The notes: a model not told the origin generated them from the sequence alone. 64,000 nucleotides of DNA from an uncultured Nitrososphaerota archaeon (GCA_964635675.1 CAZWPT010000003.1:3672-67671); one strand, 5' to 3'; positions 13,550 to 43,235 are shown, counted from the stretch's first letter. Numbers and translations are program-made.

Positions 13550-13574
13550 GGCTGGGTTTCGAGATAGGTGAGAA

Positions 13575-21765: not shown

Positions 21766-22302
21766 ATGAAAAAAGAGATTGGCCTAGGAGAGTCATATAA
21801 GCTACTGCATCCTAGACCAGTAGTTCTTATATGTGCAAGAAGCAAGGAGGGCAGGGTTAATATCATGAGCTGCTCCTGGGTTACCCCTGTGAGCGACGAC
21901 CCTCCGCTTATAGCGATGTCTCTATGGGAGAAGGGATATACTCATACTTTGATAGACGAGACCAGAGAATTCACAGTAAACATCCCCTCTTCAAAGCTGC
22001 TTAAACAGGTTTGGCTGGCAGGCACCAGAAGCGGTAGTAAAATGGATAAGGCTAAGCTTCTAAAAGTTAGCTTCACAACCTCTAGCACCATTAAAGTGCC
22101 CGGAATAGAGGAATGCTTAGGGATCCTTGAATGCAGAGTCAGAGATAGAATGAAATTCGGAGAGCAGATACTATATGTCGCTGAAGTCAAAAGAGCATGC
22201 GCTGAAGAAGGCTTGTTCAAAAAAGGTGTATGGAGTAGTAAAGCAGAACCCCTGCTTCATCTTGCCGGCAAAGCCTTCTCAATACCCAGGCCGGTTGATT
22301 AA
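21766..22302 (+). CDS. Flavin reductase-like FMN-binding split-barrel protein
   Basis: 178 aa. LLHPRPVVLICARSKEGRVNIMSCSWVTPVSDDPPLIAMSL is typical of the flavin reductase-like domain. Confidence 0.75.
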   Translation: MKKEIGLGESYKLLHPRPVVLICARSKEGRVNIMSCSWVTPVSDDPPLIAMSLWEKGYTHTLIDETREFTVNIPSSKLLKQVWLAGTRSGSKMDKAKLLKVSFTTSSTIKVPGIEECLGILECRVRDRMKFGEQILYVAEVKRACAEEGLFKKGVWSSKAEPLLHLAGKAFSIPRPVD

Positions 22303-22439
22303 ACGGCAAACCCTGTCATTTTTCCCATTTCCTCTGACCATCATTCTTTTCTGCTTCCTTTACCAAATCGTTCAAACCGTTCAAAAATTTTCTAATAGAA
22401 TTTGTATTGCATGTTCTTTAAGAAAAATAAATATTAGGA

Positions 22440-22472
22440 AAAGCTCCGCGCCACGCGCTTAGTTGGAGCTTT
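22440..22472 (+). terminator. Stem-loop (8-bp stem AAAGCTCC/GGAGCTTT, 17-nt loop) followed by a T-rich run
   Basis: A perfect inverted repeat is seen directly, followed by CTATTTTTAG. It could be a transcript 3'-end structure downstream of the flavin reductase gene, or part of an ncRNA. Confidence 0.35.
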
Positions 22473-22486
22473 CTATTTTTAGAAAA
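22470..22486. promoter_or_regulatory. Palindrome TTTCTA-TTTT-TAGAAA(A), candidate operator (copy 1)
   Basis: Palindrome seen in sequence. A more complete copy CTTTTCTA-TTTT-TAGAAAAG lies at 22749-22768. Both are in the long AT-rich region upstream of the first URO-D-like gene. Confidence 0.35.
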
Positions 22487-22748
22487 CTCTGAAACACCCT
22501 TTTTGACTTTTCTAAATAGGGTGTGAGGCTTTTGTAAACAATACTTATATTCATTCTTTTTCGAAGCGTCTCACACCTAACGTTATTCGTAGACAATACT
22601 TATGGAGGCATCTTGTAGCAATGAAGCCGGCTTAATCATCAAAAGTTATTCAAGGCCGCGCTCTTAAATACAACAACACTAATAGAACACGGATATGAGG
22701 CTAAGCTATAAGAACCAGAGAGCACCATTAGATCATGCGGTAAGACCT

Positions 22749-22768
22749 CTTTTCTATTTTTAGAAAAG
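22749..22768. promoter_or_regulatory. Perfect 20-bp palindrome CTTTTCTATTTTTAGAAAAG, candidate operator (copy 2)
   Basis: Perfect palindrome seen in sequence, about 210 bp upstream of ATG 22980. Related to the copy at 22470-22486. Confidence 0.35.
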
Positions 22769-22948
22769 TCCACATAACGGCTTTCCGCTTTCAGTATTTT
22801 TGTCCAGCATCCCGATTTTCTTTTTCTTTAAAATTTTGAAATAGACTTTCTATAAGAAAAATATTGAAAAAGTTTTTACGAGTTTTTACTTTCATATCAA
22901 CCGGCGAGATTGAAAGAGTTTTGGAAAAATAATAAGGACATAATGAAT

Positions 22949-22958
22949 GTTTATATAA
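22949..22958 (+). promoter_or_regulatory. TATA box (GTTTATATAA) plus GGAGG upstream of the 22980 gene
   Basis: TATA-like box about 22 nt upstream of the ATG. GGAGG at 22971-22975. Confidence 0.45.
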
Positions 22959-22979
22959 CCCAATTTAGAGGGAGGCCCT

Positions 22980-24107
22980 ATGAACTCTTGGGAAAGAGTC
23001 GTAAAAGCTATGCAGCTTTCAGCACCCGATAGGGTTCCAATCTACGAGATGCACATCCCTCCTAAAATATCTTCAGTAATATTGAATAAGAACGTGAATG
23101 AAATCATGTATGCTAATGCCGAGGCCTTCTATAACCTGATAGTGTCAAAGGCAGAGATTAATCTAGATAAGTTGAATGCGCAAGTGGCGGAGGAACAGTT
23201 AACCCTTTACAAGAAGCTTGGGTTAGATTGGATAAGAGTTGGCGGAGCCTACACCGGCATTCCAAAGAATGTTAAAAAGCTTGAAGACAACGTGTGGCAG
23301 ATAAATGGCGGACGCTACAAATGGACAGGAGATACAGCTTGGTTTCTGGATGAGCCTAAAGAATACGATCCCGATGAGGTGATAAGGGCTTGCAAGAAGA
23401 GCAGTATAAGGGTGAACACCGGTGTTTTCGACGTGTTGAAGCGGATTTCCAAAAAAGTTAAGGGCGAGGTCTTTCTATCCTTTGACGCTGACGGAACTTG
23501 GGGGCCAATAGTTTCAAATCCAAATCTGCTTAAGCATGTTCTCGTCTGGGTGTATAGAAGACCTGATGCTGTTGAAGCTCTGATCAACTATCATACTGAA
23601 ATTGCAATAGAATACGGGAGGTATGCAATCGATGAGGGTGCTGATGCGATTCAGCTCTGCGTTGACTACGGTAATAAAAATGGTCCTTGGCTTTCTCCGC
23701 CGATGTTCAGAAGATTCGTGAAACCGGCCTTAGAGAGGCATGTGAATGAATTCAGAAGAAAAGGGGCTTTTGTAGTGGTTCATTCAGACGGTTATATCAT
23801 GCCGCTGCTGGGCGACATGGTGGATGCAGGGATTAATGCCTATCAGGGTATAGATGTAATAGCAGGCATGAACCTCAAGGAAGTCAAGGAGAAGTATGGG
23901 GATAGGATTTGCCTGGTTGGGAATGTCGACCCGAGGGTAATCGAGTACGGTACGAAGTCTGATGTGGAGAGAGAGGTTGAAAGGTGTCTCAGGGAGGGCG
24001 GAAAAGAGGGGTATATACTGTCAGCATCTGCCAACATTTCTATTAACACGAATGCTGAGAACTTCATGCATATGGTGGAGTATGCTAAGAAAATGTCGTA
24101 TGCTTAG
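22980..24107 (+). CDS. URO-D/MtaA-superfamily protein, paralog 1 (uroporphyrinogen decarboxylase-like / methyltransferase-like fold)
   Basis: 375 aa. N-terminal MNSWERVVKAMQLSAPDRVPIYE. Central ...AFVVVHSDGYIMP... and C-terminal GNVDPRVIEYG...GGKEGYILSASANI resemble the URO-D/MtaA family. About 65% identical to the 31485..32612 product. Confidence 0.65.
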   Translation: MNSWERVVKAMQLSAPDRVPIYEMHIPPKISSVILNKNVNEIMYANAEAFYNLIVSKAEINLDKLNAQVAEEQLTLYKKLGLDWIRVGGAYTGIPKNVKKLEDNVWQINGGRYKWTGDTAWFLDEPKEYDPDEVIRACKKSSIRVNTGVFDVLKRISKKVKGEVFLSFDADGTWGPIVSNPNLLKHVLVWVYRRPDAVEALINYHTEIAIEYGRYAIDEGADAIQLCVDYGNKNGPWLSPPMFRRFVKPALERHVNEFRRKGAFVVVHSDGYIMPLLGDMVDAGINAYQGIDVIAGMNLKEVKEKYGDRICLVGNVDPRVIEYGTKSDVEREVERCLREGGKEGYILSASANISINTNAENFMHMVEYAKKMSYA

Positions 24108-24603
24108 CTGCTTCACCTATTTTTCCGAATCTCCGAAGCGCCTCGCATTCCTGTTGTTGAATCTCGATAACACCGTGGACTTATGACGAGGAGACAGTTA
24201 AAAAGCAGGAGATACCCTCTTCTTCACGTTTACCTTGGGGACTATTATGTATATCCTGAGGATGAGAACTGTATGTTCATAAACGATGAATACCTGGTAG
24301 GAAACCTTTTAGTGACCCAGTGGTTAAAAGCGGTTGCAATGAAAGAAGCATCTACATACTCGAGACGCATGATGCAGAGCTGGCTACAATAATTAGAAAG
24401 ACGAGGAGGGAAATCTTCAACCTGTAAAGAAAAGGATTGGGCAATGTGTGGCGCGCTAGAAGAAACCCTGTGAAACAAGTCGGTTACGAATATTTCTGAA
24501 ACGCTCCGTAATCTTAGCTATAGGCATGCTGGGTAAAAAAATGGGTAAAAAATCGCACAAGTCTTATAAACCATGGCGTTACCTTAGTTGACGGTGGTGT
24601 GAA

Positions 24604-24975
24604 ATGGAGGAAGAGAGAAAAGAAGTTGAGCTGCCTGAAGCAGAGAAGAAAAGAGAGATGACGCATCACGCTGAGGATGTTGAAGAATTGCGAGAAGTTT
24701 TGAAGACTGTTAGAGAGGAAGTACCTGGCCTCTTAAAGGATATCGTTGGTCCTCTTAAGGAGTTGATGGGTACATCATTAACGGAGGAGCAGGCGAGGGA
24801 AAGGGCTAGGGCAATAGCGACTTTCTATAAAGAATTAGTAGCGGCGGGAATGAAGGAGGATGTTGCTATCGAGCTGGTTAAAAACCAGTTTATCAGCCCA
24901 GCAGAATTAATCAAAAACGTGCTTGGGCAAACCGGCAAGATAAGAAGAGAAGAAGAGAAGGTTTTAGAGAAGTAA
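24604..24975 (+). CDS. Hypothetical charged protein
   Basis: 123 aa, rich in Glu/Lys, helical. No motif. Confidence 0.35.
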   Translation: MEEERKEVELPEAEKKREMTHHAEDVEELREVLKTVREEVPGLLKDIVGPLKELMGTSLTEEQARERARAIATFYKELVAAGMKEDVAIELVKNQFISPAELIKNVLGQTGKIRREEEKVLEK

Positions 24976-24985
24976 GAGATTCGAA

Positions 24986-25288
24986 ATGGGAAAGGCGTTG
25001 CAAATAGTCCTAATCGTAGTGGAGGCTTTAATAACTCTCATTGTATTAACCCCCGTTTTTTTATGGCTTTTGTTGAATGTTTATCTAGTCAATTACAGGA
25101 TAGGAAAGAACAGGAAGAAGATGGTGAAGATGTTGAGGAGGGAAGGCTTACCGGAGGATACTTCCATCAAGATAGCTGAACACATGTTTCCTAAAATGGA
25201 GTTTTCCCCTTGGAGGCTTAGATCCATAATGAGTGGAGGAGAATCCGGTGGGAGGAAAGAGGGGAAAACTGATTGGAAAGCAGGATAG
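24986..25288 (+). CDS. Hypothetical small membrane protein
   Basis: 100 aa, with one or two N-terminal TM helices. Confidence 0.3.
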   Translation: MGKALQIVLIVVEALITLIVLTPVFLWLLLNVYLVNYRIGKNRKKMVKMLRREGLPEDTSIKIAEHMFPKMEFSPWRLRSIMSGGESGGRKEGKTDWKAG

Positions 25289-25677
25289 ACGAGCTTGTCA
25301 GGAAGATCAATCTTCTTGAAGAAGAGCTTAGGAAAGAAAGGGAGTTGAACAGGGATATATTGCGAGAGTTGGCTGTCGTTAGAAGCATCCTCTCCTTAAG
25401 TTCAGATGCCTATAAGACTTCTAAGAAAATAAGCCTCCTCTCAGAAAGCCTAAGAGCAGGACCATTAGCTAGAGATATAACTGAAATATTGATAGCTGAG
25501 GGGCCATTAAACATATCTCAGCTGACTAATCTACTGAGAGAAATTAGAGGAAGGGCCTCTCGGAAAACGGTTGCAAAGAAGCTTAGAGAATTAATGGAGC
25601 TAGGGATTGTAGATGCGATAGAAGGAAAAAAGAGTGAAAAGCTCTTTAAAGTACGAAGCGAAGATTCAAGCAAGTAG
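25273..25677 (+). CDS. Putative winged-HTH transcriptional regulator
   Basis: 134 aa. An N-terminal coiled-coil is followed by an HTH-like segment (ITEILIAEGPLNISQLTNLL...LMELGIVDAIEG). Confidence 0.4.
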   Translation: MESRIDELVRKINLLEEELRKERELNRDILRELAVVRSILSLSSDAYKTSKKISLLSESLRAGPLARDITEILIAEGPLNISQLTNLLREIRGRASRKTVAKKLRELMELGIVDAIEGKKSEKLFKVRSEDSSK

Positions 25678-25881
25678 CTGCGACAGTTTTTTGTAAAAAG
25701 CTTCATCCTCTCTAAAGGAGCTAACTCCTCGTATCTGGCGGGTTTCCCACACCTTTGTAAGAATAATGATACCCTGCTGCAACATCAGAGCATTCAACTT
25801 ACAACTGAGAAGTTATATCATTTCTGGACTCTACTCTAACGCTGATGCTCATAACTATGGTTTTGAAAGACTATTCAATGT

Positions 25882-26715
25882 TTAAAGAGTAATATTTCCG
25901 TATTCTCTGAAAAATTTTTTTAAGTTTTCCAGACTTCTAACAGCTATAGTTTCCGCATTCGGTTTATAGTCAAAAACCTCAACAGACAGGTATCCGGAAT
26001 AGTCGGTTTCAATCAGACCCTGAACTATTTCTTTATAGTTAGCGGAGCCGGACCCTGGAATATACCCATTGCAGTCATTCGCATGAAAATGCTTCAGGTA
26101 GGTTCTTCCTTCTTTTATTATGTCTTTGAAAGATCTTTTTTCCTCACACATGCTTCTCACGTCGAGAATAAGTCTGATGTTTTCATGATTAACGCCCGTT
26201 ATGAATTTGATTGCTTCGCTAACATTGTTTATGAAATTTGTCTGATCTTTAGATAAGGGTTCGATGCAAAAGACCACCATTTTTTCCTTAGCAGAATCCC
26301 CAATATCTCTGAAGGCGGAGACAGCAGAATCCCATGCTCTTTTAAAAACCTCCTTTGATGGGATGCTTCTTTGCTTTGGAGAACCAAAAACCACTATTCT
26401 TCCGCCTATTTCGCTTGTAAACTCTATTACTTTAGCTAGATACTCTACGGCCTCTCTACGCACTTCTCCCGAGTCATTAAAAAGGTTCACGTTCTTGTCG
26501 CAGACCAAGACCCAATGAGTGCCAACTACTTCAATACCGCTTTCGACCGCTTTCCTCCTTATCTCCCATCTCCTATCCATGGAAATTTTCTCAACATTGC
26601 TAGCTATGGTGAAAGGGGCGACTTCGACACCGTGATATCCGAACCGCTTAACGTGAAGAAAGACTTCAGTAACATCCATCCCTGAAAACACTTCGTTGCA
26701 TATGGAAAGCTTCAT
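25882..26715 (-). CDS. Sugar phosphate isomerase/epimerase (xylose-isomerase-like TIM barrel)
   Basis: 277 aa. MKLSICNEVF...GYHGVEVAP N-terminus and overall pattern of the AP-endonuclease-2/xylose-isomerase-like TIM-barrel family. Confidence 0.7.
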   Translation of the reverse strand: MKLSICNEVFSGMDVTEVFLHVKRFGYHGVEVAPFTIASNVEKISMDRRWEIRRKAVESGIEVVGTHWVLVCDKNVNLFNDSGEVRREAVEYLAKVIEFTSEIGGRIVVFGSPKQRSIPSKEVFKRAWDSAVSAFRDIGDSAKEKMVVFCIEPLSKDQTNFINNVSEAIKFITGVNHENIRLILDVRSMCEEKRSFKDIIKEGRTYLKHFHANDCNGYIPGSGSANYKEIVQGLIETDYSGYLSVEVFDYKPNAETIAVRSLENLKKFFREYGNITL

Positions 26716-26787
26716 TTGTACCGAAAAATTGAATCAGGCTAATAAGTTTTTAAAGACCAGCATAATGGTTTAAAAAGTGTTGTTTCA

Positions 26788-27939
26788 ATGAACTCAATAA
26801 AAATGAGTAGGAAGATAGCTGAAGTCAAGATAGAGGCCGGTGTTCACGACAGGGTTGATACTCCGGTTTGTTTCTCGTTGCAGAAACTGGCTTCATTCCT
26901 TGAGGACAAAAAGGACGTTCATCTGGAGATAGATGGTGTAAAAATACCTTTGCAAGTTGCGGAGCAAGAAAACTCGCTTCAAGGTTGCTTCATCCTTCCT
27001 TATGCGAAGGCCGGGGGAACCTTAAGGGGAGATATTGTTCTGAGTGAAGAAGAGGAAGAAACCGGTTTCTCATACTACTTGAAGGAGGGCACTCTGATTG
27101 TCAACCATGGGGAAAACATGGTGGCAGGCTATAATTATGGAAAATTGCTTAGCAAACCTTATCTGTATCCGGTCTTCAGCACGAATGGCGTCAGGGTTAC
27201 GGAAGACAGGCCTAAGGATCATGTGCATCACAGGTCGCTATGGGTTGCACATGGGGATGTGAATGGATATGATTTCTGGGCTGAGTTTAACGATAGTGGA
27301 AGGATTGAAGCGAAAAATGTTAAAGTGAATAGTTGTGGGAAAGTTTTCTTAGAATTCAGCAGTAGCAATGTTTGGATTACCAAGTCAGGAAGCATTGAGC
27401 TATATGAGGAGAGGACAACGCGTATCTGGAGGCTTAAAAGAGATGTGCTCCTAGACCTTGAAATAATTCTCTCTAACCCTGAGAAAGATGTTAAATTCGG
27501 AGATACTAAGGAAGGTGGAATTCTTTCAATAAGGGTTAACGAAAAGATTAAGGTTGACAACGGTGGTAAGATTGAAAACTCGTTTGGTGGGATTAACGAG
27601 GCGGAAACATGGGGTAAGAGAGCAGCTTGGTGTGACTATAGCGGGATCGTTGATGGAGAGAGTGTTGGAATAACTGCTTTTGATCACTTGGGCAACTTCA
27701 GATACCCAACCTACTGGCATGTAAGGAATTACGGACTGATGACTGCAAATATGTTCGGCGTCTCAGTCTTTACGAATATGTCTAAGAACAGAGGGGACTA
27801 TAAGCTTCCGAAAGGAGAGAAATTGAGATTTAAGTATAGGGTTCTTGTGCATGAGGGCAGAGACTCCAGCTACATAAAAAGTAAGTATATTGATTTTATC
27901 TATCCGCCCAGGGTGGAAGTTTCAGAGGTTAAAGCATAG
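26788..27939 (+). CDS. DUF6807/PmoA-like family protein (function unknown)
   Basis: 383 aa. HHRSLWVAHGDVNGYDFW resembles the conserved core of the PmoA-like DUF6807 family, which is often adjacent to Gfo/Idh/MocA oxidoreductases. Confidence 0.4.
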   Translation: MNSIKMSRKIAEVKIEAGVHDRVDTPVCFSLQKLASFLEDKKDVHLEIDGVKIPLQVAEQENSLQGCFILPYAKAGGTLRGDIVLSEEEEETGFSYYLKEGTLIVNHGENMVAGYNYGKLLSKPYLYPVFSTNGVRVTEDRPKDHVHHRSLWVAHGDVNGYDFWAEFNDSGRIEAKNVKVNSCGKVFLEFSSSNVWITKSGSIELYEERTTRIWRLKRDVLLDLEIILSNPEKDVKFGDTKEGGILSIRVNEKIKVDNGGKIENSFGGINEAETWGKRAAWCDYSGIVDGESVGITAFDHLGNFRYPTYWHVRNYGLMTANMFGVSVFTNMSKNRGDYKLPKGEKLRFKYRVLVHEGRDSSYIKSKYIDFIYPPRVEVSEVKA

Positions 27940-27983
27940 GTCCTCTAAATGAATTTTACACTCATACCGCTGCTAGTCCTACT

Positions 27984-29138
27984 TTACTCCTTATAGAGGC
28001 CGATTTTCTTCAAAAGCTCGTAGGTGAAGTTAAGGTGTTCCACGGGAGTGTTCGGAGCCACATTGTTAGCGTCTCTGAAAACAAACTTTTTCCCTTTTGT
28101 AACTCCAGAGTCCAATACGGTTTTAACCTCCTCTTCAATCTTGCTTAAAGGACCCTGTTTAAGTGTTGTAACTCTAACACCACCCTGTATCACCACGTCT
28201 TCTCCAAGTATCTCTCTAGCCCTTCCCAAGTCTAGTGGAAACCCAGTGTCGATCGAGGAAATATTAAGCTCCTCCTTCAGGGTTTTCAGATGCTGTATAA
28301 CTGCTCCGCATAAGTGTATGCTTGGTCTTCCAGAGCAGAAAGTGTTAACTATCTTCTTATGAAGAGGGAGAACGAATTCTCTATAGGCTCTTGGAGACAG
28401 AAGCTGAATAGAGTCATCTGCAAACCCGAATCCTTCATACGGAAATGAAATCTTAAGCAATCTATGCCAAGCCTTCATTCTCTCAATTATGGATTCCGTC
28501 ATAAACCAGAGGAATTCCTCAGCTAAACTCCTGTTTAGATAGAGCATTTTAACCACGTAGCCGCCCGTAATGTTAGTCGCTATAGTGAAAGGCCCGTCTG
28601 TACCAATCGGTGCGGAGATGCTTCCAATAGGTCTTCCAAAGTAGGTGTAGCCTTCCTCCTTCTTCTTAAGGAAATATTCGTAGAAGCTTCTTACTCTTGC
28701 CATAAAGCCGGTGAAAGGCTCCGGTATGCCTTTTTTCATAAAGGTTCTCAAGTCATCAGCACTCTTCAGAAAAGGAATTATATCTGGAACACTATAGGCA
28801 GAGAAGTAGAGAGGTGCTCCGAACCATGCTGATTCATAAACGTTTTGAAACTGTACTGGAGTGGGCCATTCTCTGGGCAAACCCATTTCCCAGTCGGCAT
28901 AAACATTATGCCTCTTCCAGTATTCGAATTCGAGTTCAACCTGCAACATAGTTTCAGGATCGTTGAAAATCTTCTCATAAGTATAGTTCCTAATATTTAG
29001 CTCCTTGTTTAAAACAATCATTCTATCGTTCATTCCCCATATGACCGGGATTCTTTTATGCCTGTTTAGCTTGAAGTCTTTCCATAAGCGCAAAACCATT
29101 TCGTTGTGCTGCTCAAAACTATTGGTAGTATGCAGCAT
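27984..29138 (-). CDS. URO-D/MtaA-superfamily protein, paralog 2 (has an H-L-C-G motif)
   Basis: 384 aa. ...SGRPSIHLCGAV... sits at the position where paralogs 1, 3 and 5 have H-S-D-G. The H-x-C is reminiscent of the Zn-binding motif of MtaA-type methyltransferases. Lies immediately downstream of GH36 on the same strand. Confidence 0.6.
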   Translation of the reverse strand: MLHTTNSFEQHNEMVLRLWKDFKLNRHKRIPVIWGMNDRMIVLNKELNIRNYTYEKIFNDPETMLQVELEFEYWKRHNVYADWEMGLPREWPTPVQFQNVYESAWFGAPLYFSAYSVPDIIPFLKSADDLRTFMKKGIPEPFTGFMARVRSFYEYFLKKKEEGYTYFGRPIGSISAPIGTDGPFTIATNITGGYVVKMLYLNRSLAEEFLWFMTESIIERMKAWHRLLKISFPYEGFGFADDSIQLLSPRAYREFVLPLHKKIVNTFCSGRPSIHLCGAVIQHLKTLKEELNISSIDTGFPLDLGRAREILGEDVVIQGGVRVTTLKQGPLSKIEEEVKTVLDSGVTKGKKFVFRDANNVAPNTPVEHLNFTYELLKKIGLYKE

Positions 29139-29227
29139 TGTTCAAAAGCTTAACTTAGTATACATATTTAAGCCTTATTCTGAAAACGCTTTTCAAAGAT
29201 GTGTAATCACATCTATTTCCTGTCGGA

Positions 29228-31351
29228 CTATCTTACCAGCTTTAACCGGATCCTCTGCCCACAGCACCGGATTTTCAGTAAAGGCTCCTCCTGCACAGGC
29301 TCTCCTCCTTCAACCATTACTTTACCCTTAGACTTTGCAACGAGTATTCCAGGCTCTCTAAGCTTAAGAAACGCTTCGTCTTCATAAACAACCGCGTAAT
29401 CAATGCCCCGCGGCATAATATAGATGCCCTTCAATCCTATCAGTGTCAGCCAGTCGCTCCACGGTGCGAATATGAAGAGCTTCACACCCATGGGGTTAAG
29501 CTCAAAGCTGACAGATTTCTCCCACAACTCCTCGCTGAAGTATTCGAAAACTGCATACCTCTCATCCGGAAGCATTGCGTCGAAGGGGGTTACACTTCCT
29601 TTAACCGGTATGTCGTCCTTTGTGATGTTGAAAGCAGCTACCACACCGTATACTCCCACATCGCTCAAGCTAACCTTGGTGAAAACTTTAAGCGGTACTG
29701 CTTCATTGTAAGGATCGCGCATCAGTATATCTTTAGTGGGCAGTGCAGGCCCATCGGGCAACGGAAGGAAACCGTCGGTGAATGCAAGGGGTTTCACTAG
29801 TTCCGCTACGCTTTTTCCAGCTTCATCAGTAAGGTATATTGGACCGCCACTCACAGCTCTTGCTACCGCCTGCTGCAGAGCCCAAGGATCGTGACTCTGA
29901 AACATATCCCAGTCGGGCCATACGATCTGAGACATGAAAAGCGCATTGTATGCGTTAAAATAGAGGTGTAATTTGTTTCTGGATTTTTTATGAGGTACGA
30001 TGTAGTCCACACAATTTCTAGCTATCGTTGACCTAAACCAGCTGAATGCATTCTCTGGTTGCTGAGCCATACAGTTAAGAACCTCCAGTGAATTGATGTA
30101 AGCCGCTGCTTCCAGCCCCTTGTGGAGCATCTCGGCCGCCTCTCCAACAGGTATTTTAGCGGAATACGTATGGCCGACGGAAGACTGGTTATCAACCTTC
30201 ACGAAGTCGAAGCCCCATTCTCTGAGCTTAGAGTACCAGTCCCTGAAAAGATCGAATGAATCAGCGGGTTTTGGTACTAGGTTTCCCTCCACCTCCATCA
30301 AATGTTTTCCCCATCTCTCTGCTAGCTGGCTTCCCTTAGCGATTCCTCTCCAATGTATGTTAAGCGTGTGCCAAAGCCCAACGTATCTCGCCCCCATGCT
30401 CTTCAGTTTGCCAACGACATCCTCAAAACCTCCTGGAAACTTTCTCACACTGGGCTCCAAACCCTTCATACTCATATCCTCCTCGTCTTGCCACCCATCG
30501 TCAATCAAGGCAAAACCGGGTTTGATACCCTTCTCTAATAAGGACTTGAACGTAACCACTATTTTCTCCTCCGTAGGGTCACGCCAGCAAGCATTCCAAG
30601 AACACCAGCCAAGGTACTTGAAGATCTCTGGTAACGCCTTATTCTTCCTAAGTACGTCATGCTTTCCTGTAAGCGTGAAAGCGGACTCGTATGCAGATTC
30701 CACTGCTCTATAGGGGTTGCTCGAGGTCGCAAACGCGAAAAGAGGCACCCGACTCCAAGCTCCTGCTACCATCCTGTTCAGCAGGATGCTGAACTCACCC
30801 TGTTCGAACCGTGAGACGTAACCACGAGCACCCGAGTTCGAAATTGGAAGCAAGAACGCATAACTTCCTGCACCTTCGGCAATGAGTTGAGAAACCTTGA
30901 TATTCCTCGGCAAGCCTTTAAAGCCTGAAGCATGGATTGGGTAGCTCCATGCGCAATACTCGAACTCCTCCGCCTCTCTTAGCTGTGGATACTGATATGG
31001 TTCCTGTGATTCACCAAAGTATTTGTCAGGATCGTAAGTGAAGTGGAACAGGAGAAGACTTTTAAAACCTTCAAAGCTTGACCTTAGCTCAACTAGAAGA
31101 CCATTATCGCTCAGTCCATCGGCCTCAGCTGTCACAACGATGGCCTCCGGCCCCCATTCTTCGAATACCAGTTTACTCTTTCCCTCAGGGTATTTGACGT
31201 GCGCAGTACTGGCATGCAGCTCTACGGAAAGAGGATTCGAAAGCTCACCGGCGAGAGCCATCAGTGGCCTAAAGATAAGTCTAAAGCCCTCCTTTTCCAT
31301 AAGGATCTCCGAATCTCTAACCCTAAAGGATGCTGGACCCATGGAAAACAC
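29228..31351 (-). CDS. GH36-family alpha-galactosidase (raffinose-synthase-like clade)
   Basis: 707 aa. ALIDDGWQDEE (DDGW motif) and FDFVKVDNQ (K-x-D nucleophile motif) are characteristic of GH36/GalS-like enzymes. Confidence 0.7.
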   Translation of the reverse strand: MFSMGPASFRVRDSEILMEKEGFRLIFRPLMALAGELSNPLSVELHASTAHVKYPEGKSKLVFEEWGPEAIVVTAEADGLSDNGLLVELRSSFEGFKSLLLFHFTYDPDKYFGESQEPYQYPQLREAEEFEYCAWSYPIHASGFKGLPRNIKVSQLIAEGAGSYAFLLPISNSGARGYVSRFEQGEFSILLNRMVAGAWSRVPLFAFATSSNPYRAVESAYESAFTLTGKHDVLRKNKALPEIFKYLGWCSWNACWRDPTEEKIVVTFKSLLEKGIKPGFALIDDGWQDEEDMSMKGLEPSVRKFPGGFEDVVGKLKSMGARYVGLWHTLNIHWRGIAKGSQLAERWGKHLMEVEGNLVPKPADSFDLFRDWYSKLREWGFDFVKVDNQSSVGHTYSAKIPVGEAAEMLHKGLEAAAYINSLEVLNCMAQQPENAFSWFRSTIARNCVDYIVPHKKSRNKLHLYFNAYNALFMSQIVWPDWDMFQSHDPWALQQAVARAVSGGPIYLTDEAGKSVAELVKPLAFTDGFLPLPDGPALPTKDILMRDPYNEAVPLKVFTKVSLSDVGVYGVVAAFNITKDDIPVKGSVTPFDAMLPDERYAVFEYFSEELWEKSVSFELNPMGVKLFIFAPWSDWLTLIGLKGIYIMPRGIDYAVVYEDEAFLKLREPGILVAKSKGKVMVEGGEPVQEEPLLKIRCCGQRIRLKLVR

Positions 31352-31454
31352 GCTTCACGGTTACTAATTAACGTATCGCAGCATTTTTAGCCAAAATGTA
31401 AACTAACTCCCAGTAAGCACCTAAAGAAATTGAAAATAGAAGCCGTCTTAAAAT

Positions 31455-31464
31455 TTTTATAAAC
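31455..31464 (+). promoter_or_regulatory. TATA box (TTTTTATAAA) upstream of the 31485 gene
   Basis: AT-rich box 21 nt upstream of ATG 31485, implying a leaderless transcript. It lies in the 133-bp divergent region shared with the GH36 operon. Confidence 0.45.
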
Positions 31465-31484
31465 TGTGTTCTGCCTCTTTTCGA

Positions 31485-32612
31485 ATGAACTCTTGGGAAA
31501 GGGTAGTAACGGCTATGCAGATTTCAATACCGGATAGGGTTCCGATTTATGAGTTGCACCCCTCCTTGAAAATATTTTCCACCGTGCTTGGTAAAAATGA
31601 CGACAGTATCATGGCTCATAACCCTGAAGCGTTTTTCAACCTAATAGCTTCTAAGGGAAATATTGATCTAAACAAGGTTAACGAACAAATTGCGGAAGAA
31701 CTTCTAAACCTTTATGGAAAACTCGGGCTAGATTGGATTCGCGTTGTAAAAGCTTATGTCAGCATCCCGAGGGAATTGAAGAGGATTGGCGAGCATACGT
31801 GGCAGGTAGACGGGAAAATATACAAGTGGTCGGGAGAAACCCTTTGGAACATGAGCGAGCGTAGGACCTATGACCCGGATGAGGTGATAAGAGAGTGTAG
31901 GAATAGTGATGTTGAAATAGATCCGTTAGCGTTTGAAGTGCTTAGGAAACTAGCAGCCAAGGTGAAGAAAGACATGTTCCTGTCTTTTGACGCTGACGGA
32001 ACATGGGAGCCCATAGTGTCTAATCCAAATCTCCTCAAACACGTCCTACTATGGGTTTACAGGAGGCCTGATGCTGTAGAGGCCTTAATCAACCATAATA
32101 CTGACGTTGCCATCGAGTACGGCAAGTGGGCTATAGATGAAGGTGCTGACGCAATTCAACTCTGCGTTGACTATGGGAACCAGAACGGTCCTTGGATGTC
32201 AATCGAAATGTTCAGGAAATTTGTTAAACCAGCTTTGAGAAGAGAAGTGGATGCTTTCAAGAGAAAAGGCGCATTTGTAGTTCTTCACTCCGACGGGTAT
32301 ATCATGCCCATTCTCCCCGATATTGTTGACACGGAGGTAGATGCTTACCAGTGCATCGACGTGATCGCCGGTATGAAGATGTGGGAGGTTAAGGAAAAAT
32401 TCGGAGACAAAATTTGCCTAGTTGGGAATGTGGATCCTAGGATAATAGAATACGGGACTAAAAATGACGTAGAGAAAGAGGTTGAGAGATGCTTAAGAGA
32501 AGGGGGGAGAGAAGGCTACATTCTTTCGGCTTCAGCAAGCTGTGCGCTTAACAATAACGCAGAGAATTACATTTATATGATAAACTACGTTAAGAGAAAA
32601 ACATTACAGTAA
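31485..32612 (+). CDS. URO-D/MtaA-superfamily protein, paralog 3 (close duplicate of paralog 1)
   Basis: 375 aa. MNSWERVVTAMQISIPDRVPIYE...AFVVLHSDGYIMP...GNVDPRIIEYG...GGREGYILSASASC. The DNA is also clearly similar to 22980..24107 (identical first 17 nt). Confidence 0.65.
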   Translation: MNSWERVVTAMQISIPDRVPIYELHPSLKIFSTVLGKNDDSIMAHNPEAFFNLIASKGNIDLNKVNEQIAEELLNLYGKLGLDWIRVVKAYVSIPRELKRIGEHTWQVDGKIYKWSGETLWNMSERRTYDPDEVIRECRNSDVEIDPLAFEVLRKLAAKVKKDMFLSFDADGTWEPIVSNPNLLKHVLLWVYRRPDAVEALINHNTDVAIEYGKWAIDEGADAIQLCVDYGNQNGPWMSIEMFRKFVKPALRREVDAFKRKGAFVVLHSDGYIMPILPDIVDTEVDAYQCIDVIAGMKMWEVKEKFGDKICLVGNVDPRIIEYGTKNDVEKEVERCLREGGREGYILSASASCALNNNAENYIYMINYVKRKTLQ

Positions 32613-32661
32613 GCAGCACCCTAACACCAGTAAGAAAACAAAACTTATATATGAAAAAGAC

Positions 32662-33666
32662 TTGGAGACAAGGGGATTGGGTGGAAAGTTTGACGTAATC
32701 GGATTGGGAATGAGTTGTGTCGATTGCATTCTAAAGGTTGAAAGCGTTGAGAATCTGAACCGGGTAAGTGTACTCGACTGGACTATCCAGGGAGGGGGTA
32801 AGGCCTCTACCGCCATGGTGGCCGCGGCCCGTCTCGGGGCAAAAACCTCCGTGATAACGAGGATTGGGCAGGATGAGGCTGGAGAACTCATCATCTCAGA
32901 GTTTAAAAAGTATGGGGTAGACACTAGTAGAATCATTGTGCAAGAGGGATATAGTACTCCAATACTCTTCATACTTGTTGATGCCAATGGTAGTCCTAGA
33001 TGGATTGATGCTAAAGTATTAAAAGACCGTGTTCTTCCAGAGCCAGTAAAGCATATGGTTAAGTTAGCGGAAGCAAAGAACCAGTTTGTGAACAACATTA
33101 CAAGAAAACATGTTGAGGACGAGCTCGACTTCGTAACTGAAGGGAGAATACTCCTCCTGGATTGTTTTGAGCCCGAGTGTTTAGATGCGGCTATAGCTGC
33201 CAGGAAGAATAATGTTGAAACTTGTCTCGATATGTATTTTCACCCAAATCTGACAGAACTTCTCCGAAACATAACATACTGTATACCATCTAGGAGAGCT
33301 GCTGCTAATTTTACTGGAGAAACTGATCCTGAAGCCATGTGCAGAAAGCTTCTTCGCCTAGGGCCTGAAGTAGTGGGAGTGACGCTCGGCGAAGAAGGTT
33401 CTGTGTTCATGACTCAGAAGGGGGAGGTGGTGAAGCAGAAAGCCTTCAGGGTTCAGGTGGTGGATACAACTGGAGCCGGTGACGTGTTTCACGGTGCCTT
33501 CTGCTACGGCGTGGCGCAAGGCTGGAGTCTTCCTAAGACCGTGGAATTTTCAAGTGCAGTTGCAGCGCTAAAATGCAGAAGACTCGGCGGCAGGGCAGGG
33601 ATTCCCTCTCTGAACGAGACTGAGGGATTCTTAAGAAGATTTAAACAAAGCATAAATATGACTTGA
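32662..33666 (+). CDS. PfkB-family carbohydrate kinase (ribokinase-like)
   Basis: 334 aa. C-terminal DTTGAGDVFHGAF signature of the PfkB family. Confidence 0.8.
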   Translation: METRGLGGKFDVIGLGMSCVDCILKVESVENLNRVSVLDWTIQGGGKASTAMVAAARLGAKTSVITRIGQDEAGELIISEFKKYGVDTSRIIVQEGYSTPILFILVDANGSPRWIDAKVLKDRVLPEPVKHMVKLAEAKNQFVNNITRKHVEDELDFVTEGRILLLDCFEPECLDAAIAARKNNVETCLDMYFHPNLTELLRNITYCIPSRRAAANFTGETDPEAMCRKLLRLGPEVVGVTLGEEGSVFMTQKGEVVKQKAFRVQVVDTTGAGDVFHGAFCYGVAQGWSLPKTVEFSSAVAALKCRRLGGRAGIPSLNETEGFLRRFKQSINMT

Positions 33667-33700
33667 GTTTATACTTTCCTCTAAGGAGGTTTGTCTAAAC

Positions 33701-35065
33701 TTGGAAGGTCAAAACACTAGGGTGAAACTTGGTTTTGTCCCATCTCATAGACGGATGTTCAAAAGGTCTGAATCATGGGCAAAGGAGCTGCGTGACAGGA
33801 CTCTGCAAATACTTAGAGAAATTAGTTTCTTGGAAGTTATAGCCCCTGATGAAAACCTTACTGGGAACGGTCTGGTGCAGACTGATGAAGATGCAGAGAA
33901 AGTAATACGGCTGTTTAAGGGAAACTGCGTAGACGGGATTATTATTGAAGCTGTAGATTTTGGCGACGAGGTTTCAGCAGCACTCGTAGCATCTGCTTTG
34001 TCTAAACCCGTCATATTATTTGCAACAAGAGAACCGCCTTTCACTGCTGAGGGGGAACGAATCTCGGATTCCTTCTGTGGAACAATATCAATAGGTTCTG
34101 CGCTTTATAGAAGAAAGATACCGTTCGTCTGGGGAGGAGTAGTTTTTCCGGAGGAAAAAGAGTTCAGGGAATCCATTGAGAATTTTGCTAGAACATGCAC
34201 CATAGTTAATGGTTTCTTAAAGGCCAGGATAGGTCTGGTAGGTCCTAGGCCAGAGAGCTTCGAAACCTGCGCCCTGGATGAGGTCACCCTAATAAGAGCA
34301 TTCAATCAAAGAGTGATCCCCATTTCTCTCGTTGAAGCCGGAGCATTGGCAGAAAATATTAATGTTCAGGAGATTAATAGAATTATGCAGTCCATTAGGA
34401 GCGAAGCCGATACGTCGACGATAAATGAAGAAACTCTGGTTAAAATAGCGAGGCTCGAATTCTGCTTGCTGGCACTGGCCGATAAGTGGAGGCTTGACGC
34501 TATGGGAATCCAGTGCTGGGGGCCCATGCACCGTGTCTTTGGAATTGCTCCGTGCCATGTAAGCGGTAGACTTGTCGACCAAGGCATTATGGTGTCCTGT
34601 GAGGCAGATATCCTTGGTGCTTTAACAATGCTGATTCAATATTTGGCCTCCTTTAGAAAGACTCCTCCTCATTTCGTCGACTGGACGGTGCAGCATCAGG
34701 AGAAAGAGAATGTTTTCTTAGCCTGGCATTGTGGAAACGCTCCGCCGTCTCTTGCAAACGATAAGGCCAGGATTAATCAGAACGGCATGGGAACCTTTCA
34801 GCTTAAGCCCGGTATTGTAACCATTAATAGGTTAGCGGAATATGAAGGTAAATTCAAAATGCTGATGACGATGGGAAGAATTTTAGAGAGCCGTCAGAAT
34901 CTTCAAGGCACTTGGGCCTGGGTTGAAGTGCCCGATTTGAAGAGGCTTTACGAGGCTATTCTTAAGAACGGCTTTACTCATCATGCTAGCATGATTCATG
35001 GAGATTACACTAGGCCGATTCAAGATGCTTGTGAAATACTTGGAATAGAAATAGTCAAGGTCTAA
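33701..35065 (+). CDS. L-fucose/L-arabinose isomerase-family sugar isomerase (tentative)
   Basis: 454 aa. The N-terminal VKLGFVPSH...R and overall size are consistent with FucI/AraA-like isomerases. Assignment is tentative. Confidence 0.45.
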   Translation: MEGQNTRVKLGFVPSHRRMFKRSESWAKELRDRTLQILREISFLEVIAPDENLTGNGLVQTDEDAEKVIRLFKGNCVDGIIIEAVDFGDEVSAALVASALSKPVILFATREPPFTAEGERISDSFCGTISIGSALYRRKIPFVWGGVVFPEEKEFRESIENFARTCTIVNGFLKARIGLVGPRPESFETCALDEVTLIRAFNQRVIPISLVEAGALAENINVQEINRIMQSIRSEADTSTINEETLVKIARLEFCLLALADKWRLDAMGIQCWGPMHRVFGIAPCHVSGRLVDQGIMVSCEADILGALTMLIQYLASFRKTPPHFVDWTVQHQEKENVFLAWHCGNAPPSLANDKARINQNGMGTFQLKPGIVTINRLAEYEGKFKMLMTMGRILESRQNLQGTWAWVEVPDLKRLYEAILKNGFTHHASMIHGDYTRPIQDACEILGIEIVKV

Positions 35066-37866: not shown

Positions 37867-38973
37867 TCATTTTTTCGCAGCAAGTTCATCAAGCAGTTGT
37901 GAAACCATTCTTACCCTCTCGATATCTGCAGGAGGGGGAAGCTCATCCGATATGCCAAGTATGAGCCGTGGAATAGCCTTCACTATTTTTCTTACCAGTT
38001 GCTCCAAAGTTTCGAAAGGCACGTTCGGAAGGAAAAGTAGGAAGGGTATGCCGTCTAAGACGACGATCTCATCCTTAAACTCTCCTGCAATATCTTCGAC
38101 TGTCATGTCTCCAACGGGCTCAGGGGTTAAGGCTTCAACCCCATCAACCCCAGACCTCCAGAGTAATGGGAGAAGAGGCTTCGCATAGCCGTCAACATGT
38201 ATATGCACGTACTTGCCTCTTTTATGCAAGTATTCGCACCTCTTCTGATAGATCGGCAGACAGAATTTCTCGAACAGCCTTGGAGAAGTTAACCTAACAT
38301 CAATGTTTTCCCCCAAGTTAAATATTTCAATCGGAGAATTGCCCATCAGCTCAAAGAACTTATCATTATATCTTTCAATAGCATCCATAATCTCCTCAAG
38401 CCTATTATACCCTTCAATGTATAGGAACCTCATTGTCCGAGTGAAACCCATGTAGTCCAGTATTAGAGCCTGAAGAGGCGAGTGTGGAAAGAAGAAGGAA
38501 ACTATTCCTTGCTCCTTTACGTTCCTCTCCAACTCCTCGTAAACCCCCTGGTTGAACCTGACTTCAGCACTGTCCAGCAGGTAGGATAAAGCCTTAAAAT
38601 CCTCAGCGGTTTTCAAAAGATACTCTAGTTTTCTCGAGGACAGGCCCCATTCGTCAGTCTTAGCTACTTCCTGAAGCGAGCCGACGGGCGTTTTAATCCT
38701 TGTCCTAACCATGTTTCCGTTTCTCGTAACATTAAACTGAACGTCATCCCCGTATGATACTTCCACAGCGCTTTTCACGAAGTATCCCGAGTAACACCTC
38801 CAGCTTGCTCCAAGATCTATGCAAACATCTGCGAGACTAACTCCCTCGTATTTTTTAGGAAGCTTTCCACTCTTCTTCGCCACGTAATACCAGTATTCAT
38901 GCCTTATATTCCAAGGGACCTTGTCTACCTGTCTTCCCTGGAAGACCGCTAGGATTCTTTCATGAGCGTTCAA
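37867..38973 (-). CDS. URO-D/MtaA-superfamily protein, paralog 4
   Basis: 368 aa. N-terminal MNAHERILAVFQGRQVDKVPW aligns with paralogs 1 and 3. The central motif is VHIHVDGYAKP. The called start codon is TTG (caa on + strand at 38971-38973). Confidence 0.6.
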   Translation of the reverse strand: MNAHERILAVFQGRQVDKVPWNIRHEYWYYVAKKSGKLPKKYEGVSLADVCIDLGASWRCYSGYFVKSAVEVSYGDDVQFNVTRNGNMVRTRIKTPVGSLQEVAKTDEWGLSSRKLEYLLKTAEDFKALSYLLDSAEVRFNQGVYEELERNVKEQGIVSFFFPHSPLQALILDYMGFTRTMRFLYIEGYNRLEEIMDAIERYNDKFFELMGNSPIEIFNLGENIDVRLTSPRLFEKFCLPIYQKRCEYLHKRGKYVHIHVDGYAKPLLPLLWRSGVDGVEALTPEPVGDMTVEDIAGEFKDEIVVLDGIPFLLFLPNVPFETLEQLVRKIVKAIPRLILGISDELPPPADIERVRMVSQLLDELAAKK

Positions 38974-42149: not shown

Positions 42150-43235
42150 TTAAGTCTTAATCGGGTATCTGCCGTATTTTTCTGCAGCCATGTACATTGC
42201 TAAGGCGTTCTCAGGCGGCACATACCTGGTTAACACATTAGTAGTGCTTAAAATGTAGCCTCCTCCTGGAGCCACTTCCAGCATGAGGCGTTTCACTTCA
42301 GCTTCCACGTCTTCCGGTTTACCAAACGGCAGTAGATAGTCTAAGTCAACGTTTCCCATCAAACACAGCATGCCCCCCCAACTCTTCTTGATATCAACGA
42401 TGTTAACGCCCGCACTTGGTTGAAGACTATGTAAACCGTCAAACCCAGCCTTAGCTATATCCTCCATTAATAACGTGATATTACCGTCTGAATGCAGCAT
42501 AACTGGGAGATTGCGCTTGTGTGCAGCCTCAGCCTCACCAGCCAAGTAGGGGAGCACGCATTTCCTGAGAAGGCTTGGAGGGATGAAGGGGCCGTTATCA
42601 TACGCTAGATCATCACCAACCAGTATCACGTGCGCCCCGGCCTCGGCAAACATCTTTATGACTTCTAGGTTAAACCTGTAGACTTCTTCGATCACATGTC
42701 TCAGAGCATTCGGATAGAGGTAGAGGGCTTTAACGTAATTTGTAAAGCCCATATGGGGGTAAATCGAGTCGAATACGCCGCCTACTTGAGCGAAAACGCA
42801 AAAATCAGTCTGCTCAACCCACTTCCTTATGCTTGAAGTGTTGAAGAGGCTTATGTCAGGCATGTAGAATTGCTCCATGTCTCCAGGAGTGTGAGGAGCA
42901 TATTTCAAGTAGCGCCGCGTTTTTCCACTTTCAACCCATTCTGCTCCAAGCCAGTTTCGATATATTGGATATCCCTCCTTCGTTGTCCCTATGGTTTCAA
43001 CTTTAGGCCCACCACCTAATCCGAGGTTTACCAGATCCATATTGAGCAATTTTCGAACCCTTACATGAGCCTCAAAAGAATCATCAATGGGCTCCCTTAG
43101 AAGAGCTGAGACAAGTTCATCATGTATTCCTAACTCTCCCTTAGGTACCTTATCAGCCTCTTCAATGTTCAAAGCTCGATAGACTCTTTCAACCTTATCC
43201 AATGATACCACCTGCGGCAACGTGGAACCGTACAA
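42150..43235 (-). CDS. URO-D/MtaA-superfamily protein, paralog 5
   Basis: 361 aa. ...PVMLHSDGNITLL...CLMGNVDLDYL...GGGYILSTTNV. The called start is TTG at 43233-43235 and the N-terminus aligns with the other paralogs. First gene of an apparent minus-strand operon with GH38, paralog 4 and ARH. Confidence 0.55.
   Translation of the reverse strand: MYGSTLPQVVSLDKVERVYRALNIEEADKVPKGELGIHDELVSALLREPIDDSFEAHVRVRKLLNMDLVNLGLGGGPKVETIGTTKEGYPIYRNWLGAEWVESGKTRRYLKYAPHTPGDMEQFYMPDISLFNTSSIRKWVEQTDFCVFAQVGGVFDSIYPHMGFTNYVKALYLYPNALRHVIEEVYRFNLEVIKMFAEAGAHVILVGDDLAYDNGPFIPPSLLRKCVLPYLAGEAEAAHKRNLPVMLHSDGNITLLMEDIAKAGFDGLHSLQPSAGVNIVDIKKSWGGMLCLMGNVDLDYLLPFGKPEDVEAEVKRLMLEVAPGGGYILSTTNVLTRYVPPENALAMYMAAEKYGRYPIKT

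Follow-up and report, generated by a model that had tools for sequence, protein, structure and literature searches.

The DNA considered here is a 64,000-nt stretch from an uncultured hot-spring archaeon of the Nitrososphaerota (GCA_964635675.1, CAZWPT010000003.1:3672-67671), hereafter the window. It carries two similar genes of the URO-D/MtaA fold on the plus strand, copy A (22980..24107) and copy B (31485..32612), with a glycoside hydrolase family 36 (GH36)-type gene between them. Each encodes a protein of 375 amino acids with an H-S-D-G motif, A being the less derived paralog and B, which is followed by genes for a PfkB kinase and a fucose/arabinose-isomerase-like protein, the more derived one. 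The original prediction, made from the sequence of the window, had seen in them a recent duplication. Sequence comparison suggests instead that A and B are an ancient and stably inherited pair, a reading to which we give a probability of about 0.8. The duplication appears old because the synonymous sites of the two genes are saturated, their flanks are unrelated, they belong to separate clades and their arrangement is shared by other genomes.

The similarity between the two genes is real and not a matter of chance, since they form the only DNA-level repeat of the window: a repeat search over all 64 kb returned just two families, both made up of intragenic segments of A and B (76% and 79% identical), and found no younger duplicate or other DNA repeat. 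The proteins are 66% identical in a gapless BLASTP alignment (248/373), close to the predicted value of about 65%, and the other predicted likenesses were reproduced as well, namely the identical first 17 nucleotides (ATGAACTCTTGGGAAAG), the pairing of GTTCCAATCTACGAG with GTTCCGATTTATGAG, and the H-S-D-G motif in both proteins (VVHSDGYIMP and VLHSDGYIMP). The DNA similarity that had been called clear is clear in the sense that no other repeat exists in the window, but it amounts to only 66.6% identity across the whole coding sequence (gapless codon alignment). By codon position, the identity is 77%, 82% and 41.6% at the first, second and third positions, respectively. The proportion of synonymous differences (pS, Nei-Gojobori) is 0.82, a value at which the Jukes-Cantor correction is undefined, that is, the sites are saturated; the nonsynonymous divergence (dN) is 0.24. 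When the 200-nt flanks of the two genes are compared in register, the identity is 31% upstream and 23% downstream, as for unrelated sequences. Recent segmental or tandem duplications are expected to show low synonymous divergence and duplicated flanks or repeat boundaries, whereas A and B have a pS of 0.82, flanks that can no longer be aligned, and repeats confined to the genes themselves. The pairwise DNA alignment, which the original prediction had proposed as a check, thus speaks against a recent event.

So does the phylogeny that had been proposed along with it. A search covering 5.8 billion protein clusters retrieved orthologs of A that are 82-93% identical to it and a separate set of orthologs of B (83-97%), the nearest proteins coming from metagenome-assembled genomes (MAGs) labelled Thermoproteota, 'Thaumarchaeota archaeon SJ3.Bin56', and Candidatus Brockarchaeota. 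In a distance-based neighbour-joining tree of 86 full-length homologs (100 bootstraps), A and B fall into two separate clades with 100% support each, one containing 14 cluster representatives of the A type and the other 6 of the B type (99% when P0028 is joined to the latter). Another 12 sequences, which share about 78% identity with A and are therefore referred to below as the 78% group, make up a third clade, also supported at 100%. All three together form a group with 86% support from which Thermofilum, Bathyarchaeia, and other homologs are excluded. What weighs against a firm dating is the weak support in this tree (43-58%) for the order in which A, B, and the 78% group separated, so that the duplication node can be placed only approximately and the 78% group may be either of the A type or older than the duplication.

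Homologous loci in other genomes and MAGs are designated L001-L023 and L090. A and B co-occur in the same order, 7-10 kb apart, in L003/L004/L008, in GCA_038862835 (L001 and L005), and in L007, L014, and L015, with L007 and L014 representing two Brockarchaeota MAGs. At least four other Brockarchaeota-like MAG lineages thus hold both genes in conserved order, while a recently made copy would be expected to be missing from relatives. Between genomes, orthologs have diverged with a synonymous divergence (dS) of 0.31-1.58 and a dN/dS of about 0.06-0.09 (about 0.07-0.09 for A), and the A-versus-B dN in three genomes is practically the same (0.238, 0.246, and 0.247). The ortholog divergences, together with the equal A-B distances, point to one old duplication without later homogenization and to purifying selection on both copies. 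The idea of ongoing paralog expansion finds no counterpart here, with no younger duplicate in the window and both genes old across the MAG lineages.

The pair belongs to the category of ordinary ancient paralog pairs: it resembles syntenic, subfunctionalized duplicates in its saturation, in the purifying selection on both members, in its presence across relatives, and in the difference between the regulatory DNA of the two genes. According to the scheme proposed here, a single duplication in the ancestor of the sampled Brockarchaeota-like Thermoproteota would have given rise to A and B, which would since then have been passed on by vertical inheritance, as neighbours on a conserved chromosomal backbone, and would represent two old orthologous groups within one uncharacterized H-(S/T)-D-G subfamily of the URO-D/MtaA TIM-barrel superfamily. 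Other genes (GH36, GH43, GFO oxidoreductase, PfkB, isomerase) would come and go around them. A and B are ordinary old paralogs in an uncharacterized branch of a known superfamily, and in a deep-branching archaeon, an identity of 66% between adjacent genes is not to be taken as a sign of recent origin. An ancient inherited pair with standard leaderless promoters is nothing unusual and says nothing about an ongoing expansion; what retains value is the activity behind the H-x-D-G motif and the element upstream of A, both considered below.

For both genes, transcription most likely begins at the start codon or within a few nucleotides of it, in each case from a TATA promoter of the gene's own. The TATA box of A, TTTATATA, is located at 22950..22957 on the plus strand (-30..-23 relative to the ATG, its 3′ end 22 nt before it), and that of B, TTTTTATAAA, at 31455..31464 on the same strand (-30..-21, its 3′ end 21 nt before the ATG), in agreement with the predicted boxes 21-22 nt upstream of each start. 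In the standard archaeal geometry, the centre of the TATA box lies about 26 nt ahead of the site where transcription starts, and canonical promoters with a B recognition element (BRE) and a TATA box that give leaderless mRNAs are known from Sulfolobales and other Thermoproteota. Since the boxes of A and B are centred about 26 nt from the ATG, leaderless starts are most likely for both. The two genes resemble the canonical leaderless type in having a TTTAWAWA-type 8-mer at this distance from the start, and B also in having no Shine-Dalgarno-like sequence downstream of its TATA box; A differs by an SD-like hexamer, GGGAGG, in the spacer, and some orthologs differ by a GTG start.

The same spacing is found at one third of the genes of the window. 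When TTTAWAWA boxes with at most one mismatch were counted upstream of its 45 genes, they peaked at -32..-29, with 14 boxes there versus 0-7 in any other 4-nt bin. A box starting between -33 and -27 precedes 15/45 genes, while the window-wide rate would predict 1.0 such genes and the intergenic rate 3.4; leaderless starts therefore appear to be the default gene-start architecture of this genome. Matches to sigma-70 promoters are not enriched in 22300-35600 (19 versus 19.4 expected from shuffles), and hairpin terminators in the same segment are below expectation in a scan of the bacterial type, which is uninformative for an archaeon.

The position of the box is also kept among orthologs, so that the leaderless mRNAs implied by the original prediction gain comparative support. 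TTTATATA occupies -30..-23 in the A genes of the window, L001, L002, L009, L010, and L015; L011 has CTTATATA at this place, and L006 keeps a box there despite an unrelated T-rich spacer and an intergenic region of 43 nt. In L003 (~9950-10000) and L004, an insertion of about 18 nt in the promoter of A has moved the old box to about -50, but the insertion itself brings a second box, TTCATATA or TTAATATA, at -29, by which the TATA-ATG distance is restored. As for the B orthologs, the box is located at -31..-24 in L005 and L007, L003 and L004 carry an identical cgtcttaaaatttttataaactgtgttc block at the promoter, and the 28 nt around the box do not differ between the window and L003. With TATA promoters of their own and upstream flanks that are only 31% identical, A and B may well be controlled separately, and the independent regulation proposed for them is plausible to that extent. 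Four orthologs of the A type carry a GTG at the position of the window ATG behind the same -30 box (L001 10001, L009 2704, L011 4778, and L012 4371); these are apparently leaderless GUG starts. At the other end of A, a run of five T residues (24120..24124, plus strand) lies 13 nt past the stop codon as a candidate archaeal oligo-T terminator, and the next open reading frame (ORF) starts 497 nt past the stop codon, leaving a gap of 496 nt; A is therefore probably monocistronic. A presumed operator shared by the two genes, GARATTGAAA, is present upstream of both, but two or more matches also occurred in 10 of 100 shuffles and the sequence is missing from B orthologs without GH36, so that it was treated as a chance match.

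The leaderless start is deduced from the spacing of the box, and two points weigh against it for A: GGGAGG (22970..22975, plus strand, -10..-5) lies between the TATA box and the ATG, 4 nt before the latter, with its GAGG core present in most A orthologs, though not in L011 and L006; and 677 nt of conserved DNA upstream of the gene speak for a control of A more complex than a bare TATA box. If the A mRNA is leaderless, GGGAGG would go untranscribed. This hexamer is the sole feature arguing for a short leader on A and could be the Shine-Dalgarno site of a leadered mRNA. In that case, transcription would begin within the conserved upstream region and the -30 box would be incidental. The arrangement in L003 and L004 can be cited in favour of such a leader, because the displaced box, about 50 nt upstream, could yield a transcript with a leader of about 22 nt that includes the GGGAGG motif. 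Yet the -30 box is exactly placed in L006 and L011, both of which are devoid of GAGG, and the intergenic region of L006 hardly exceeds 40 nt; moreover, the insertion that displaces the old box in L003 and L004 carries its replacement at -29, and the -30 spacing is the modal arrangement among the genes of the window. A leadered A message is thus unlikely, and the leaderless start remains the preferred reading for both genes.

The noncoding region of 677 nt (22303..22979, no strand assigned), which separates A from a flavin-reductase gene, is conserved from end to end. It aligns across every A-ortholog locus, with an identity to the window of 85% in L003 and L010, 75% in L090, 71% in L001, and 69% in L011. 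For comparison, A in the window and A in L001 differ at 52% of their synonymous sites, which corresponds to an identity of about 48% versus 69-85% for the noncoding region. A perfect 16-nt palindrome, TTTCTATTTTTAGAAA, occurs in it twice, within 22470-22489 and 22751-22770, 281 nt apart, and a third match, TTCTAATAGAA, is located at 22390-22400; these are the only matches of the palindrome pattern in the window, where 0.95 would be expected, and the 16-mer has no other occurrence among 23 loci. An 18-nt direct repeat around ACAATACTTAT is found at 22531-22548 and 22586-22603 (0.08 expected). A metagenome-wide scan with the conserved 19-mer ATACAACANYACTAATAGA gave 79 matches, 75 of them chance matches from unrelated environments and the remaining 4 real, all directly upstream of A-type genes. 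The region thus always directly precedes a gene of the A type; B has nothing comparable, and of the intergenic DNA downstream of A, no more than the last ~75-115 nt can be aligned. The restriction of the element to A fits separate regulation of the two genes.

The most economical reading of the region would be an array of protein-binding sites controlling A, although an unstructured small RNA or another DNA element may account for it instead. Several other candidates were considered and rejected. A missed small gene in the core of the region is contradicted by the fact that no frame is open in all five lineages. A structured RNA is unsupported, because RNAalifold with column shuffles gave a z of about 0 for the core (22520-22700) on both strands, and only the palindromic parts scored, equally on both strands. 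A C/D-box RNA was looked for by eye, but UGAUGA on the minus strand near 22636-22641 has no CUGA partner. There was no Rfam match at the gathering threshold over the window, and a search of 22250-23050 with E values up to 10 gave only sub-threshold noise. As a constant companion of A, this long and strongly conserved noncoding region could matter more than the finding on the gene pair itself.

Regarding the origin of B, a horizontal transfer from another lineage could in principle take the place of a duplication within this one. In favour of it, the tree hardly resolves how A, B, and the 78% group branched at depth, as mentioned above, and the GH36, PfkB, and isomerase genes near B vary from genome to genome. 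However, the three groups form one clade (86%) without Thermofilum, Bathyarchaeia, or other homologs, and members of the B-clade were seen only in genomes that also have A, in the same syntenic slot. Besides, the region does not stand out in its GC content, and a search of the window for signs of a mobile island, including a tRNA scan, found no tRNA gene, mobility-related domain, or compositional break. An acquisition of B from outside is thus quite unlikely, and a duplication within the lineage is preferred.

Under this duplication, A seems to have retained the ancestral state and place, with B as the shifted copy, as can be weakly inferred from several comparisons. Among the 24 clade-fixed differences, A has the state of the outgroup majority at 14 sites and B at 8, while the 78% group shares the state of A at 17. 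Changes found only in B affect sites that are invariant or nearly so among 27 outgroup sequences (M24L, P28L, G175E, G290C, L299M, and N352S). In Tajima tests, the median number of B-specific changes is 43 versus 34 for A, with p < 0.05 for 3 of the 27 outgroups; a faster evolution of B is thus only marginal, which counts against this polarity. With B more derived and placed ahead of a sugar kinase and an isomerase in some genomes, the pair has most likely split or shifted an ancestral activity. In L022 (7001-11239), a 51%-identical homolog on a 1.38-Mb contig adjoins an Lhr-type helicase gene, and A nearly does so in the window (18213-24107); this neighbourhood may be residual ancestral synteny for the position of A.

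As to the proteins, Pfam assigns both to PF01208 (URO-D), with 135.2 bits for A (residues 149-371) and 115.1 bits for B (residues 185-371) against a cut-off of 23.9; the match is limited to the C-terminal two thirds, and the N-terminal third is unmatched. An AlphaFold2 model of A (mean pLDDT 95.4, pTM 0.92) has the UROD/MtaA-type barrel with an extra β-meander predicted at residues 84-122. In a Foldseek search of the PDB with the model, the top 26 matches were all MtaA or UROD (E 1e-15 to 4e-12, TM 0.63-0.79), followed by MetE, and a sequence search against solved structures placed MtaA of M. mazei (4ay7) first (E 8e-14, residues 149-366), before plant and human UROD. Nevertheless, judged by their sequences, A and B are neither uroporphyrinogen decarboxylases nor Zn-thiolate methylcobamide:coenzyme M methyltransferases, because their scores in the NCBIfam models are far too low and the zinc ligands are replaced. 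For HemE (TIGR01464), A and B reach 62.7 and 53.2 bits versus a cut-off of 302.95; for MtaA/MtbA/CmuA (NF040654), 77.1 and 64.2 bits versus 400; and for TIGR01463, 76.8 and 71.0 bits versus 235.4.

The comparison with HemE/UROD (1uro, 1j93) reveals the same Pfam family and the same fold (TM ~0.67-0.73), but an identity of 16-18% and, for TIGR01464, 63 versus 303 bits. The N-terminal third of HemE carries its substrate-binding arginines; the Pfam and phmmer alignments of A and B to HemE begin only at residue 149-191, and D83 is invariant in the subfamily. In addition, A and B lie among glycoside hydrolase genes and not haem genes, and six paralogs are present in 64 kb: no hem gene was found in the window, and the neighbours are GH36, GH38, GH2, sugar kinase, isomerase, DUF4432, and DUF6807. 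With MtaA of Methanosarcina mazei (4ay7/4ay8), A and B share the TIM-barrel fold and the His of the H-x-C motif (TM 0.71-0.79), but they are 20% identical to it in the Foldseek alignment, they score far below the NCBIfam cut-off, and they lack both the thiol-activating Zn(His)(Cys)2 site (Cys to Asp, distal Cys to Ala) and corrinoid partner genes nearby. In the alignment with 4ay7, the zinc ligands H-I-C face H268-S-D270 and the distal Cys faces A351. Across 69 aligned members of the subfamily, H268 is invariant, D270 occurs in 68, and Ala, Asn, or His but no Cys is found at position 351; R6, D17, R18, E23, D83, D229, Y230, N315, S350, and N361 are invariant or nearly so. The HSDG motif, which had been regarded as a variant shared by the two copies, is indeed present in both, but HSDG or HTDG occurs in 68/69 aligned members and is a hallmark of the whole subfamily, not derived in A and B alone. 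The residues R6, D17, R18, E23, D83, D229, Y230, H268, D270, and N315 suggest a hard-ligand metal or acid-base site. Consequently, neither gene should be annotated as uroporphyrinogen decarboxylase or MtaA.

With sugar genes in the vicinity and kinase and isomerase genes behind B, the substrate of A and B might be guessed, with low confidence and by analogy of context, to be a small carbohydrate-derived molecule. What speaks against this functional assignment is that the distant homologs in L021-L023 are found in unrelated contexts with no recurrent partner gene. No literature on this URO-D subfamily was found, nor any paper connecting it with carbohydrate metabolism. In the window, the H-(S/T)-D-G clade has three members, A and B among them. 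This clade might represent a new activity that arose from corrinoid methyltransferases by exchange of the Zn-thiolate site for His/Asp and was recruited as several copies to archaeal glycan-utilization regions, or it might supply the methyl-transfer step reportedly lacking in Brockarchaeota, with the 677-nt region as a new regulatory element or RNA dedicated to A. Such a scenario is unlikely.

The lacking step needs a comment. The N-terminal PDRVP...E motif of A and B presumably resembles the MtaA type, and MtaA provides the best matches to A and B both in the structure database (TM 0.71-0.79) and in the sequence search (4ay7, E 8e-14), so that A and B could be regarded as corrinoid-dependent methyltransferases, MtaA/MT2-like or similar to MT1 of O-demethylases, and even as the missing second methyltransferase of the methylotrophy proposed for Brockarchaeota. 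According to De Anda et al. 2021 (PMC8065059), MtaB, MttB, and corrinoid proteins are present in these archaea whereas MtaA is missing, and the second methyl transfer is proposed to depend on an undescribed protein. Supplementary Data 9 of the same paper (PMC8065059) lists ten COG0407 ('uroporphyrinogen-III decarboxylase') genes on contigs with mttB or mtaB, one of them 1.7 kb from mttB and beside a sugar-phosphate-isomerase-type gene; these genes, which may or may not be orthologs of A or B, favour the idea. On the other side, of the three zinc ligands of MtaA only the His is kept, the two Cys being replaced by Asp and Ala, the NCBIfam scores for MtaA are 77 and 64 bits versus the cut-off of 400, and no corrinoid protein and no MtaB or MttB (MtaBC, MttBC) was found in the window or in the gene tables of L001-L007. 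Moreover, close homologs occur in MAGs of Thermofilaceae and Desulfurococcaceae. These lineages are not known for corrinoid methyl transfer. Without the thiol-activating site and without corrinoid neighbours, A and B have a low probability of being the missing MT2, and a methyltransferase role of either kind is improbable; the preferred assignment is still an uncharacterized activity in the URO-D/MtaA superfamily. At the same time, the many URO-D/MtaA-fold genes with altered metal ligands in Brockarchaeota-like genomes bear on the published claim that MT2 is lacking.

The coding start of the two genes deserves separate consideration, because it is here that they are most alike. The first 75 nt of A and B are 84% identical, versus 66.6% overall, and at residues conserved between the two proteins, the same codon is used in 39% of cases overall but in 12/18 within codons 2-25 versus 78/215 elsewhere (Fisher p = 0.012). 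This excess of codon sharing marks 22980-23054 and 31485-31559 (plus strand) as segments of 5′ synonymous constraint. The N-terminus MNSWER is found family-wide, with R6 near-invariant and E5 as the majority residue, identical in the six paralogs of the window. One could see in the 17-nt identity and the 84% over 75 nt, together with the raised use of the same codons, the tract of a recent gene conversion between the 5′ ends of A and B. However, the 5′ sequence ATGAACTCYTGGGARAGRGT... is present, in nearly the same form, in all orthologs of A and B and also in the 62%-identical homolog of L012; when every A-versus-B combination across genomes is counted, the codons agree in 61% of cases at the 5′ end versus 38% in the rest; the pairs tested within genomes are not consistently more alike at the 5′ end than those between genomes; and the DNA directly upstream of the ATG codons is unrelated. 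A conversion tract is therefore very improbable. The 5′ similarity is, on these alignments, an ancestral constraint on synonymous sites, and the identical 17-nt start results from the conserved MNSWER together with this constraint, both common to the orthologs, and not from recency. It is plausible that, in a leaderless message, the 5′ coding nucleotides double as the initiation region, which would be the cause of the constraint.

Finally, the view of the original prediction, in which A or B is a recent tandem-like duplicate and the URO-D family is still expanding in a sugar island, is hardly credible, because although A and B are by far the closest of the six paralogs of the window (66% versus 18-31% identity), form its sole DNA repeat, and lie 8.5 kb apart on the same strand, their synonymous sites are saturated, the similarity of their flanks is gone, they form separate 100% clades, their synteny extends over at least four lineages with ortholog dS up to 1.6, and their A-B dN is equal in three genomes.

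The number of six paralogs was correctly predicted: PF01208 genes are found at 22980 and 31485 on the plus strand and at 27984, 37867, 42150, and 58812 on the minus strand. The third of these (27984..29138, minus strand; PF01208 79 bits, 20% identical to A) is located between A and B and has its own box, TTAAATAT, at about -33. Its HLCG motif is the His-x-Cys form found in MtaA, unlike the HSDG of A, B, and the paralog at 42150, and in the six-paralog alignment, no Cys is visible in it where the distal-ligand region of MtaA aligns. The paralogs at 37867..38973 (HVDG) and 42150..43235 (HSDG, 31% identical to A), both on the minus strand, lie on the two sides of a GH38 mannosidase gene, and the remaining one (58812..60326, minus strand) encodes 503 amino acids with a YAEG motif.

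The GH36-type gene upstream of B (Raffinose_syn, PF05691 162 bits; 29228..31351, minus strand) is divergent from B, as predicted. The distance of 133 bp given for the intervening region is correct if the gene starts with the GTG at 31351, but it becomes 142 bp with the in-frame ATG at 31342, which is the likelier start because it fits the 704-aa ortholog in L003. The designation of this gene as a second GH36 paralog finds no support in the window, where no other GH36 paralog was detectable. Besides the window, L003 and L004 have the gene, but it is missing from L005 (8762-10001) and L007 (8766-10001), where the third paralog, with its promoter GGCTTAAATAT retained, is directly divergent from B across 80 nt.

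Downstream of B, a PfkB sugar kinase gene (32662..33666, plus strand) follows after 49 nt, and the fucose/arabinose-isomerase-like gene (33701..35065, plus strand) comes next. A box, TTATATAT, at 32645-32652 precedes an in-frame TTG at 32677 by about 30 nt, and the PfkB gene probably starts at this TTG rather than at 32662; since the box is at the leaderless distance from the TTG, B and PfkB may belong to different transcription units. In L005, the kinase and isomerase genes are intact and in the same order; they are decayed in L003/L004 and absent from L007. On the side of A, L001/L002 contain GH43-like, GFO/IDH/MocA, two xylose-isomerase-like TIM-barrel, and GNAT genes (11190-15800) between A and three small ORFs; no remnants of this insert (GH43, GFO, TIM-barrel) were found downstream of A in the window. 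The three small ORFs (24604-25677; 123, 100, and 134 aa) follow A in the window, have no Pfam family, and keep their order in L001-L007, and the last ~75-115 nt ahead of the first of them are conserved. The third (25273-25677) gave only sub-threshold winged-helix matches (FUR, ArsR-type HTH_5, and HTH_20; E 0.009-0.07; residues 63-130).

Other genes of the window encode two GH38 mannosidases, GH2-like proteins, DUF4432 and DUF6807 proteins, xylose-isomerase-like TIM-barrel proteins, a GFO/IDH/MocA oxidoreductase, and a TrmB-type regulator. Large ORFs in the sugar region that have no match in Pfam or NCBIfam are located at 13575-15911 (778 aa), 47715-49679 (653 aa), and 53536-54819 (426 aa); the URO-D homolog of the Thermofilum locus L021 comes directly after an ORF of 651 aa that likewise matches nothing in Pfam. 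An ORF of 1810 aa in the window (8093-13525, minus strand) combines N-terminal GH2-like sugar-binding domains with C-terminal MacB periplasmic-core and FtsX permease domains, and an analogous Peptidase_M28-MacB-FtsX protein of 1523 aa is encoded in L021 (444-5015), two genes upstream of the URO-D homolog.

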